From positions 31,434,001 through 31,498,000 of the forward strand of contig OX597842.1 in the NCBI GenBank assembly GCA_951406725.2: 64,000 bases of DNA, given 5' to 3'. A program made the translations under genes and the position numbers. Below the pieces are notes generated by a model that did no database searches, was not told where the DNA came from, and saw only the letters and a program-made list of their open reading frames with translations. The stretch comes from Octopus vulgaris (taxonomy: Eukaryota). The first letter of the stretch is position 1. The number at the start of each line of letters is the position of its first letter. This document shows, piece after piece, positions 24,973 to 60,670 of this stretch.

Positions 24973-25170
24973 CGCCATGTTGGATCGTTAGCTCCTACAC
25001 ACATTTTTTTCTCTCCTTGTTTCTTTTCTGTGTATCTTTCTGTCGAGGAGCGTATGCTCGAAATGTAAAACACTTTTTCTATTTCTATTCCTGAGCGCCA
25101 TACTAATACATTTGTTTGTTTGTACTCCACCTGCCTTCGTCTTTTGTTTATTTTTGTAAACCTTCCCATT
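24973..25170 (+). mobile_element. Short hammerhead-like element
   Basis: TTT-CTGTCGA-G-GAGC(GTAT)GCTC-GAAA-TGTA-AAA at 25037-25070; flanked by (TA)n. Confidence 0.55.
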
Positions 25171-25220
25171 ATATATGTATATATATATATACGAGAAAGA
25201 AGCAACAAGAATGGATTAGT

Positions 25221-25311
25221 TTTTAGTACAATTGTTTCATACAAAGACAGGCTTTATTAAAAGTTGCAAATATTGCAGCAGATAAAAGTGTCCCGTACTC
25301 ATCAGCTAAAA
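25221..25311 (-). ncRNA. Type-I hammerhead ribozyme, mirror copy
   Basis: Reverse complement of 25384-25474 with GTACGGGACA in stem II. Confidence 0.75.
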
Positions 25312-25383
25312 TACATGAGTTCTCCAAATATCTTAGTGGGTGAGGCTGATATGTATTTTAGCTGATGTATTTTAGCTGATGTA

Positions 25384-25474
25384 TTTTAGCTGATGAGTAT
25401 GGGACACTTTTATCTGCTGCAATATTTGCAACTTTTAATAAAGCCTGTCTTTGTATGAAACAATTGTACTAAAA
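25384..25474 (+). ncRNA. Type-I hammerhead ribozyme, canonical core
   Basis: TTTTAG-CTGATGA-GTATGGGACA...TGTCTTTGTAT-GAAA-CAATTG-TA-CTAAAA; palindromic stem III; predicted cleavage after A25468. Confidence 0.75.
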
Positions 25475-25773
25475 ACTAATCCATTCTTGTTGCTTCTTTC
25501 TCGTTTATAATCACCTCACATTACTGTATGGTTAACACCATATAGTTTTCTGGTGCATCTAAGTTAAGTACCGCATTCAAGTGAATTCATTAGAATTGAC
25601 TTGAATCTTAATTGCTTTTATATATATATATACATATAGGGGGGTTCAGAAATTGGGGGTATACAATTAAGAAAAAAGAAGCACGTACAATATTTATTTT
25701 TAACAAAAAAATTAAAAGTTACATTCTGTTGTGTCTGGGGAGGGTCATTCTCTTTTAGTGCCTTATAATTTAA

Positions 25774-25957
25774 CACACACACTGATAAAATTTCCACTCA
25801 TTTCCTTCTTTATTTTGCCTAAAATTTTCATTGCATCGTGCAACCTTTTTGATCACTTGCTGTCTAATCAATAACTATTGAAAAGGTTGCAAGATGCAAC
25901 GAAAATTTTAGGAAAATAAAAATAAGGGAATGAGTGGAAATTTTACCAGTGAGTGTA
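25774..25957. mobile_element. Inverted-repeat element with a U3-A8 hammerhead-like motif
   Basis: Arms about 25774-25850 and 25881-25957; CTA-TTGAAAA-G-GTTGCA(AGA)TGCAAC-GAAA-ATTT-TAG at 25875-25911. Confidence 0.55.
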
Positions 25958-30743: not shown

Positions 30744-31163
30744 ACTCTTTTACTCTTTTACTCTTTTATTTGTTTCAGTCATTTGACTGTGGCCATGCTG
30801 GAGCACGGCCTTTTAGTCGAGCAAATCGACCCCGGGACTTATTCTTTGTAAGCCTAGTACTTATTCTATCGGCCTTTTTTGCTGAACCGCTAAGTTACTG
30901 GGACGTAAACACACCAGCATTGGTTGTCAAGCGATGTTGGGGGGACAAACACAGACACACAAACATATACACACACATACATATATATATACATATATAC
31001 GACGGGCTTCTTTCAGTTTCCGTCTACCAAATCCACTCACTAGGCATTGGTCGGCCCGAGGCTATAGTAGAAGACACTCGCCCAAGATGCCACGCAGTGG
31101 GACTGAACCCAGAACCATGTGGTTTGTAAGCAAGCTACTTACCACACAGCCACTCCTACACCT
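30744..31163 (-). mobile_element. SINE family A, full length
   Basis: Homology to family A. Confidence 0.9.
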
Positions 31164-31663
31164 ATATATATATAAGTTCAGTAAAATTCAGATTCAGTTG
31201 AATATGGTACTTAAGTTAAAGGCACCAGACTTCAGTATGGTATTATGCATATAATTCAAAATGAACATGAATCCATATAAAACATGTTCTTTGTCTATCT
31301 ACTTATCCTCTTTGTGATTTTGGATGATATGAAAACTATACAAATGAATCCTTTGGATTTAACTAAATTCTATATTTTCCTGCAGCTGAAGATTGGTCTA
31401 CCTTTTCAAAATTGACGTAATGTTTGCATTGTTCAATTAAATGTTGTTGTATGAAACGATCGTACTGCATTACCTCTGGATATCCTTGTTGCTCTCAACA
31501 CACGAACTCACATAAAGAATCTGGGAAACCAAATCCCCAAAATGAAGTAAAATGGAAACCTCAGAATCATGAGCTGCAATGTTTGAGGAGCAATGGCAGC
31601 TAATTGCACACATGTGCACCAGAAATGCATCAGAGTGCAGTTTCTCTATTTTATAGCAACGGG

Positions 31664-35987: not shown

Positions 35988-36069
35988 AGCAAAAATTTTT
36001 GATTCAGATGAATATGGTACTTAATTTGAGGCACCAGAATTTAATATGGTATTATACATACTATTTTGA

Positions 36070-50702: not shown

Positions 50703-51255
50703 TAGCTACATAATAATAATTATCATTATTATTATTATTATCATTATTATTATTGTTATTATTATTATTATTATCATTATTATTATTATTATCATTATTA
50801 TTATTGTTATTGTTACTGTTGTTGTTGTATTTTTATTTGGCCAGAAAAACATTGTTTGCGCAGATGGACAAATAAAAGTTGATAAAAACCTGTTTTAGTG
50901 AGTGAAAAATTTAAGAAAAAATATCCAATAAATGAAATGAAGTTACCCCAGGGGGGCCCTGGCAAGATTTATCTGTTGACTTTCATCTTGGTTCTGTGTA
51001 TATATTTACTTCCAACTCTTTGATTGCATTTTATTTTTATGGAGAGGGGTGGGCGTGGTTGGGTGGGGGGACGGAGTTCGTTTTAAAGAAAAACAAACAC
51101 AGAAAAAAAATATTAGTAAACAGAAATGTTTTTTTATGTAAAATACGATTTTGATTGATGTTGATTGATGTTTGTTGATTGATTGAGTGATTCTGTCTGA
51201 TTCTGTTTGCCGATTGATGTTCTTGTAGCACAGATTGTAGTATTATTGGCTCTCA

Positions 51256-58742: not shown

Positions 58743-59366
58743 TACCCACACATACACATGCACACACACATACATATACACATGTAAACAAAGGCATATG
58801 TAAATATATTTATACATACACATACATGAATAAATACATATATATATGTAGATACATATACATAATTTCATATACATATATATATATGTGTGTATATATT
58901 TATATGTACATAAGCACACACATACACATATATATACACACATATATATATATATATATACATACGTGTATATATACACACACACACATACACTCGACAT
59001 GTACATCTCAAAAAATTACAATAATTACAAAGTCTAAAAAGTGAATATCTACACAAGAATTCTTCTTCTCCTACACAATGGACGTTGTAGTCGTTTTTCA
59101 GTTTAGTGTGTAAACAATCTCACCGATTCAGTCTTTGGTTTGTGAACAAGCTCGGTAATTCGCAGAATGGTTACCGTTGACAACCAACTGACTGAGTATA
59201 CCTAAATGCATGAATTGTGTTCGTCTCACAATGTCAGAACATCACGAAACCGAAAGAGTACAGTTGTGCAAAAAGGAAGAAAATTGCTGAAAATAATTGC
59301 TGGATTTTGCAATTAATTTTGATTATTACCAAAATTTATTTCCATGTTATAAAAATTGTTATTATA

Positions 59367-59780
59367 GGCCCAGGAGTGGCTGTGTGGTAAGTAGCTTGCT
59401 TACCAACCACATGGTTCTGGGTTCAATCCCACTGCGTGGCATCTTGGGCAAATGTCTTCTGCTATAGCCCCGGGCCGACCAATGCCTTGTGAGTGGATTT
59501 GGTAGACGGAAACTGAAAGAAGCCTGTCGTACATATGTATATATATATATGTATGTGTGTGTATGTCTGTGTGTCTGTGTTTGTCCCCCTAGCATTGCTT
59601 GACAACCGATGCTGGTGTGTTTATATCCCCATCACTTAGCAGTTCGGCAAAAGAGACCGATAGAATAAGTACTAGGCTTACAAAGAATAAGTCCCGGGGT
59701 CGATTTGCTCGACTAAAGGCGGTGCTCCAGCATGGCCGCAGTCAAATGACTGAAACAAGTAAAAGAGTAAAAGAGTAAAA
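59367..59780 (+). mobile_element. SINE family A, full length
   Basis: Homology to family A. Confidence 0.92.
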
Positions 59781-60069: not shown

Positions 60070-60491
60070 CTCTTTACTCTTTACTCTTTACTCTTTTACT
60101 TGTTTCAGTCATTTGACTGCGGCCATGCTGGAGCACCGCCTTTAGTCGAACAACTCGACCCCGGGACTTATTCTTTGTAAGCCCAGTACTTATTCTATCG
60201 GTCTCTTTTGCCGAACCGCTAAGTGACTGGGACGTAAACACACCAGCATCGATTGTCAAGCAATGCTAGGGGGACAAACACAGACACACAAACACATACA
60301 CACACACATATATATACATACACATTTACGACGGGCTTCTTTCAGTTTCCGTCTACCAAATCCACTCACATGGCATTGGTCAGCCCGAGGCTATAGTAGA
60401 AGACACTTGCCCAAGATGCCACACAGTGGGACTGAACCCGGAACCATGTGGTTGGTTAGCAAGCTACTTACCACACAGCCACTCCTGCGCC
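60070..60491 (-). mobile_element. SINE family A, full length
   Basis: Homology to family A. Confidence 0.92.
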
Positions 60492-60670
60492 TATATATTG
60501 ACCAAAAAGTTATCAAAGAAGGCAAAGTTAGCAAAATGATTGTTATATCACTCCCAGTGCACACATATCCGCATCTCACAAACTGAGCATCAAAAAAGGT
60601 AAGATTTGTGAAACCAGTGTTTAGCTTTGAAGATGTCATCAATATTTGCTTTGGAATAAGACATTGAGTT

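Follow-up and report, generated by a model that had tools for sequence, protein, structure and literature searches.

Among Penelope-like elements (PLEs), the closest described relatives of the family reported here belong to the Hydra clade, which is defined by an RWK motif, the change of DKG to DKT, a CxCX5C motif and CxxC/CxH features (PMC8557442). The Hydra-clade elements Penelope-2_NV, Hydra-1_Amil, Penelope-13_HM and Hydra-1_Obim share with our family the RWK, DKT, CxCx5C and CxxC/CxH motifs, a C-terminal GIY-YIG domain and (TA)n targets, and elements of this clade carry a hammerhead near the 3' end whose stem III is of the ACA(N)..TGT-A type, as is also found here (PMC8557442). In that account a tail of 30-40 bp is often present at one end only and inverted 5'-truncated copies are described; such a copy of Penelope-13_HM bears an identical hammerhead on both strands, as does the locus studied here. 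In contrast, loop 2 spans at most 10 nt in the Hydra elements listed, compared with 55-60 nt between core and GAAA here, and their tail measures 30-40 nt, compared with about 100-120 nt here (PMC8557442). By eye, Hydra-1_Obim differs from our family in both hammerhead and protein. The same source calls the mechanism of PLE insertion, as well as the function of the hammerhead, open.

Minimal and palindromic hammerheads of metazoan PLEs are type I motifs that lie in the pseudo-LTR and have a palindromic stem III, as here, and dual hammerheads 100-700 bp apart on opposite strands have been described, with activity as a dimer and a circle proposed (PMC4209133); compared with these, stem II of our family is much longer, consists of several segments and contains a conserved AATAAA/ATTAAA. 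Penelope of Adineta vaga likewise shows an inverted pseudo-LTR, a tail on one repeat and asparagine-rich inserts between reverse transcriptase (RT) and endonuclease (EN); its 31-bp tail is called optional, and the self-priming model is disfavoured by the arm-length counts given below (PMC3846280). In vitro, Poseidon_Ac of the green anole uses two internal RT start sites that bound the tail, inserts at AT-rich targets and has both target strands cut and extended, in parallel with our family; its hammerhead is unnecessary for insertion, unprocessed RNA is the main substrate, and the PLE is predicted to dimerise (PMC11167929). It differs in belonging to another clade, in the adjacency of its start sites and in a hammerhead that overlaps the ORF start, and in the accessible part of that report we found no count of strict two-site pairing in inverted insertions. 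Finally, metazoan non-LTR retrozymes also have a type I hammerhead within a PLE-related repeat, and their circular RNA has been obtained via RtcB in vitro (PMC7229834; bioRxiv 10.64898/2026.07.22.740005), whereas they consist of tandem non-coding units and the family here has an autonomous parent and ragged truncations.

We analysed a 64,000-nucleotide stretch of the Octopus vulgaris genome (the window), in which the segment 25191-25621 is a single 5'-truncated insertion of a Hydra-clade PLE into (TA)n (Table 1). Both of its arms are pieces of the element's pseudo-LTR, each with its own type I hammerhead. Counted from the predicted cut, the outer ends fall at two sites, B at +36 and A at about +153, ~117 bases apart.

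Table 1. Features of the insertion and its immediate flanks, in window coordinates
Feature	Position	Strand	Remark
Left (TA)n target remnant	25168-25190	.	B-type ends elsewhere also run into TA repeats
Arm B, pseudo-LTR piece truncated at its 5' end (-122 to +36, counted from the predicted cut)	25191-25347	-	Outer end at start site B
Type I hammerhead motif, minus copy	25221-25311	-	Core 25305-25299; predicted cut after 25227
Head-to-head junction with locally templated 31-nt insert	25345-25378	+	GCT 25345-25347, GAT, 2 extra ATGTATTTTAGCTG
Arm A, 5'-truncated pseudo-LTR piece, -89 to about +153	25379-25621	+	Outer end at start site A
Type I hammerhead motif, plus copy	25384-25474	+	Predicted cut after A25468
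Plus hammerhead stem I, TTTTAG / CTAAAA	25384-25389 / 25469-25474	+	
Plus hammerhead core, CTGATGA	25390-25396	+	
Plus hammerhead stem II region, 60 nt up to GAAA	25397-25456	+	
Plus hammerhead GAAA	25457-25460	+	
Plus hammerhead palindromic stem III, ACAATTGT	25460-25467	+	
Inner hairpin of extended stem II, TGCAATATTTGCA	25418-25430	+	Compensatory changes in sister subfamilies
AATAAA, candidate poly(A) signal	25437-25442	+	26 nt upstream of predicted cut
GU-rich TTGTTGCTT, candidate downstream element	25487-25495	+	19-27 nt past the cut
117-nt tail, bounded by start sites B and A	25505-25621	+	On one arm only
Right (TA)n target remnant	25620-25638	.	Sequence

A previous sequence-only reading had described a 126-bp inverted repeat with divergent hammerheads. 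The mirror-image arms and the palindromic stem III are indeed there, and we recovered both motifs at the positions it gave, from the sequence and by descriptor scan; what it had missed were the parent element, the greater length of the arms and the fact that the arrangement had already been published. A two-ribozyme device, which its wording would allow, does not survive, the pair being two truncated pseudo-LTR pieces of a protein-coding PLE placed head to head. Local alignment matches 25186-25319 to 25376-25509 with 131 of 134 positions identical, and the 126-nt core differs by a single C/T, in agreement with the near-identity claimed for the arms. The left arm lacks 2 nt found in other copies, and at its outer end up to 5 further nucleotides are common to arm and TA tract. 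Because the left arm is element sequence as far as 25347, the apparent spacer between the arms is not unique DNA; the right arm extends 117 nt further, and this tail runs on into the ORF leader in full-length copies. A target-site duplication is unreadable within (TA)n, and the ORFs in 15000-36000 include no recognisable host-gene exon. As a locus the insertion is ordinary, one among about a thousand or more truncated copies.

Several other repeats lie in the window, where a general repeat scan was discarded, microsatellites dominating its output. On one side of the element, a very high-copy repeat at 24983-25160 has a TA-rich end that appears to be the insertion target; at 25742-25955 a different very high-copy repeat, itself inverted, adjoins the element, and public contigs show many different inner junctions for it, as in Penelope pairs. 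A second, older head-to-head insertion, from a sister subfamily, occupies 31171-31493 and comprises a tail-type arm (31171-31262, minus strand) and an arm whose hammerhead core looks intact (31386-31464, plus strand), likewise one tail arm and one short-ended arm. Sister-subfamily sequence also occurs as an isolated tail fragment (35988-36068, minus strand), and short fragments at 50727-50836 (minus strand) resemble the family ORF. A 409-nt inverted pair (59363-59771 and 60087-60495, 93% identical) appears by eye to carry a tRNA-like head; this repeat occurs a third time at 30812-31166, where it adjoins the older Penelope insertion.

The repeat arm yielded 1,059 candidates in the 2.8-Gb genome, of which the 40 scored gave matches 94-100% identical (96-100% for the top 40 matches), bearing out at the family level the youth suggested for the insertion. 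Upstream of the repeat, copies continue across 1.5 kb of non-coding sequence and then enter an ORF whose last domain is of the GIY-YIG type, and in one locus (L053) the same repeat directly precedes the ORF start. The unit from hammerhead to hammerhead, measured in locus L166, is coding and about 4.65 kb long, including asparagine-rich inserts and the 1.5-kb 3' region, and thereby exceeds the length of generally under 3 kb that is typical, if not strictly defining, of Hydra elements. An unbroken frame of 976-984 codons was present in 6 of 20 full-length regions. The L166 ORF encodes 957 amino acids from its Met, with RT and GIY-YIG domains, RWK at 64 and DKT at 151 (DKG changed to DKT); long asparagine-rich in-frame inserts separate its RT and EN.

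The intact ORFs contain RWK, DKT, YRDD, CxCx5C, VIY..YIG, CxxC and CxH, the linker motifs of the family reading CKCRIKSKC, CQLCSME, LLN and CVH (CxCX5C, then CxxC and CxH around conserved E and N). Copies with intact ORFs form a sister subfamily, 89-93% identical to the window arms, and the closer copies sampled have broken frames. Pfam searches with trimmed domains returned RVT_1 at E 4e-4 and GIY-YIG at E 2e-3, neither of which reached the curated cut-off; untrimmed asparagine-rich ORF pieces gave no Pfam family match, nor did a PDB sequence search with the RT region give any. By eye, VIY and YIG enclose no pair of cysteines in the EN, which also has only one of the two histidines, and so lacks the CCHH motif in what we take to be its layout. 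A canonical hammerhead lies in the pseudo-LTR, and (TA)n follows nearly all A and B ends. By its motif definition, and with reference proteins compared by eye, the predicted protein thus places the family in the Hydra clade. The family is new within this known clade, and its head-to-head arrangement is already published; in the openly searchable literature we found no description of it. Two neighbouring ORFs were seen beside family copies: the EN ORF of a second Hydra-type family, 35% identical over EN (L038:1467-2504, minus strand), and an unrelated Penelope-like EN ORF of CCHH type (L032:1917-2597, minus strand).

In the window, a strict descriptor scan with stem thresholds found only the two hammerhead sites of the insertion, and a looser pattern found 3 sites, compared with 1 in 200 doublet shuffles combined. 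The CUGANGA core, the GAAA and the NUH cut site that mark a type I hammerhead are all present. The sequence-only reading had proposed counting genomic copies: the exact pattern of core, 54-58 nt and GAAACRATYGTAC matched 1,174 + 1,114 = 2,288 times in the genome, and its reversed control not at all. An Rfam scan of the window gave 0 matches at the gathering score, probably owing to the length of stem II. This stem is interrupted and structured, with 55-60 nt between core and GAAA; the unusually large loop described earlier, with its AATAAA and its inner hairpin, is present, and is better seen as a structured stem II than as a loop.

For 24 representatives, hand-chosen among loci L087-L134 and the window itself, the alignment had 89.4% of cells paired, a share that fell to 24-47% in slid registers. 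Double changes occurred in 10 of 23 pairs (stem I 4/6, stem II 3/4, stem III 1/4, inner hairpin 2/7), and the covariation score was reached by 0 of 500 shuffles, all of these numbers being inflated by the relatedness of the rows. Stem III alternates between ACAATTGT and ACGATCGT, at a column where the search pattern allowed either R or Y. Invariance of the core is no evidence, since the pattern fixed the core in most representatives, and RNAalifold alone missed stems II and III while recovering the inner hairpin and stem I. These comparisons confirm the hammerhead as a sequence motif, and its covariation indicates that it is under selection in the parent element. At one position of the catalytic core, two sister-subfamily copies (L101/L102) depart from CTGATGA, both reading CTGATTA.

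In the energy model, the isolated 91-mer that the earlier reading had singled out for folding did not form a hammerhead (-12.8 kcal/mol, z 0.29). Forced hammerhead folds lay ~6 kcal/mol above free folds for both monomer and dimer (-6.6 kcal/mol for the forced monomer; -24.5 forced vs -30.5 free for the dimer), and the predicted hammerhead would probably cut only as a dimer or with the help of protein. Read-through RNA of the full inverted repeat folded as a long hairpin (-261.6 kcal/mol for the plus strand; other value -238.5), so that competition of the hairpin with catalysis had been rightly anticipated; it is a by-product of insertion rather than a function. The window copy would be a dead insertion, both of its motifs locked in the long hairpin and without function.

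Poly(A) signals mainly take one of two forms, AATAAA or ATTAAA, and 20-26 nt is their usual spacing. In 22 of the 24 representatives, AATAAA (13) or ATTAAA (9) ends 20-26 nt ahead of the predicted cut, making this the best-kept one-mismatch hexamer pair of the stem II region (next best, 19), in a region that is AT-rich and in rows that are related. Some of this conservation may stem from base pairing to the U-rich 5' strand. A GU-rich stretch follows the cut in most subfamily copies, and hexamer and GU-rich stretch are a candidate poly(A) signal and a candidate downstream element. No report of a poly(A) signal inside a PLE hammerhead was found in the openly searchable literature. Contigs of four sequencing runs, guessed to be RNA, cover the family repeat and the ORF, in a form from which ends, strand, cleavage and poly(A) are not readable; among the joints listed for these contigs none is an intron inside stem II, and of the contigs of four runs compared with the window none spans the empty site, which carries no evidential weight.

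Of the forms in which the family occurs, the head-to-head pair is the most frequent. Loci L001-L086 contained 137 distinct outer ends, comprising 71 A (one of which is an internal repeat before an ORF), 59 B and 7 other, and their head-to-head pairs were A+B in 51 of 56 cases, never A+A or B+B, the remaining 5 having an irregular end. Another 20 regions, picked by the ORF 5' end, added 11 A+B pairs and 1 with an irregular end, the others showing one arm. All pairs with two regular ends are therefore asymmetric (62/62 A+B). Of these, 23 come from a tail-selected set in which B+B could not appear; the remaining 39, obtained without tail selection, have a probability of 0.5^39 = 2e-12 under free choice. 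Later duplication could connect L067 with L068, and likewise the two pairs in L079. Sister subfamilies supplied 15 pairs in which both motifs were detected, and all 15 are A+B (7 from loci without tail selection); in them site B usually falls within +31 to +39, whereas the range for site A is +132 to +159. All these counts derive from top-scoring samples of genome copies. The openly searchable literature yielded no count of strict A+B pairing. For the tail itself a conserved hairpin fold is predicted, but its pairs hardly vary.

Unlike the fixed outer ends, the inner ends are ragged, ranging from -1 to beyond -3,900. About half of them (in L057-L086 and the pair set) lie within the ribozyme or a short way upstream of it, from -130 to -1, a clustering that could reflect stalling of the RT in structure or priming at the 5' repeat copy near the transcription start. 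In the 41 of 51 pairs whose junctions a script could parse, the arm reaching further upstream was B in 22, A in 16 and neither in 3 (by inspection, L015 switches to B); in 10 full-length pairs it was B in 7 and A in 3. One ~10.7-kb insertion (L176/L177, G000:C2 about 37.617-37.628 Mb) has two arms that both exceed one unit and lie head to head, with a B end on one side and an A end on the other, and one arm carries an unbroken 981-codon frame.

The 41 parsed junctions consist of 20 overlaps of 1-10 nt, 4 blunt joints, 3 joints with 1-2 extra nucleotides, 7 inserts and 7 cases obscured by internal repeats, which inflate their apparent overlaps; the other 10 of the 51 were not parsed. By eye, the 7 inserts, of 7-31 nt, copy nearby element sequence. 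The window junction is one of these: a GCT that belongs to both arms is followed by GAT and then by two additional copies of the 14-nt unit ATGTATTTTAGCTG, with ATG at their boundaries. The triplication noted in the earlier reading is thus present (three units, 25351-25392), and its slippage-type junction is supported by the 31-nt insert of locally templated sequence. This stutter would result from repeated slip-back in synthesis or repair, for which RT and a host end-joining polymerase are indistinguishable. The window junction occurred in no other locus examined.

We also compared the 5' ends with the cut. Of 30 A arms selected by the tail, 28 begin well before the cut; the other two begin at -1 (compatible with +1) and at +9. 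Of 30 loci with the ORF 5' end, 22 show the upstream repeat, which begins upstream of the cut in 18 and at +23 to +107 in 4, and in 0 of 22 at +1, the cut. Self-cleavage as the determinant of the 5' ends was rejected, as there is no clustering at the cut. With almost all copies reading across the cut and both start sites located 3' of it, the template would therefore have been uncut, in agreement with the preference for unprocessed RNA in vitro (PMC11167929), or cut and re-ligated, in agreement with the proposed circle (PMC4209133), alternatives between which these data do not choose.

These observations are, in our view, probably explained by twin priming at two fixed RT start sites, which would have produced a truncated, head-to-head insertion of a Hydra-clade PLE. 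The endonuclease would nick both target strands, and each nick would prime the RT at its own fixed site on an RNA that is uncut or cut and re-ligated; an RT dimer would hold a single RNA and make both cDNAs from it. Synthesis of each would stop early, and microhomology-mediated end joining would then connect them; repeated slip-back between two ATG 14 nt apart would give the 14-nt stutter. A+B pairing in 62 of 62 pairs, with either arm the longer, fits twin priming from two RT start sites, and the in vitro behaviour of Poseidon, with two start sites and both strands cut and extended, counts as an analogy in its favour (PMC11167929). In that system the start site was not seen to differ from one strand to the other, so that strict A+B pairing is not predicted by this alone. 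In a fold-back or self-priming scheme, as published (PMC3846280; PMC8557442), one strand or an antisense RNA folds back and copies itself, and staggered resolution by the endonuclease leaves the tail; the many short pairs with nearby inner ends and short overlaps would suit it. Such a scheme, however, nests the second arm in the first, placing the tail always on the longer or always on the shorter arm, and both occur, in the 22 to 16 split of the parsed pairs as in the 7 to 3 split of the full-length ones; the insertion with both arms longer than one unit also speaks against it. We regard fold-back as improbable, and the family-wide counts, taken from genomic copies, support twin priming over it.

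Whether one RNA or two served as template is a separate matter. An asymmetric complex holding two RNAs, one per RT subunit, with one subunit always using A and the other always B, would explain A+B pairing and the overlapping arms without strand displacement, and mismatches within pairs (50/4,283, 1.17%) are barely rarer than between pairs (1.49%). At three diagnostic columns, however, the arms were concordant in 13/13, 16/16 and 28/28 pairs (expected 0.58, 0.71 and 0.76), which demands RNAs of the same subfamily each time; this is possible if few source copies are active at once. Such concordance is equally expected if one subfamily is active at a time, so that origin from a single RNA molecule is what we infer rather than observe, and we consider two RNAs a possible, if unlikely, arrangement. 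A stand-alone non-autonomous element, be it a retrozyme, a MITE-like element or a regulatory two-ribozyme hairpin, might be suspected from the predominance of short, non-coding copies in the sample and from the about 1,059-1,709 candidates for the repeat vs 97 for the ORF 5' end. We consider it very improbable: inner ends are ragged and continue into the 3' UTR and the RT-EN ORF, no short tandem unit was seen, and the junction of the window did not recur. In its specific forms, a non-LTR retrozyme was rejected on a unit that is coding and 4.65 kb long, vs a non-coding tandem unit of a few hundred nucleotides; a MITE or foldback DNA transposon on asymmetric outer and ragged inner ends, vs fixed symmetric TIRs and a fixed internal length; and a functional two-ribozyme hairpin because its arms are truncated insertion pieces.

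Returning to twin priming, a further proposal, speculative and in our judgement rather unlikely as a whole, is that the long stem II acts as a switch, in which its poly(A) signal would set processing of the 3' end by the host in competition with ribozyme cleavage at the same spot. The RNA would accordingly either be translated or become a re-ligated 4.65-kb circle, a single molecule that an RT dimer would copy from two fixed points 117 nt apart.

The family provides a large natural record of Penelope insertion, in which the range of tenable insertion models is reduced by strict A+B pairing, by the variation in which arm is longer and by the lack of 5' ends at the cut, and the existence of intact ORFs makes in vitro study feasible. 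A poly(A)-like hexamer kept within the hammerhead stem leads to a direct hypothesis for the role of the ribozyme. If true, the switch would give Penelope hammerheads a function, and would account together for inverted insertions, partial-tandem insertions and the one-sided tail.
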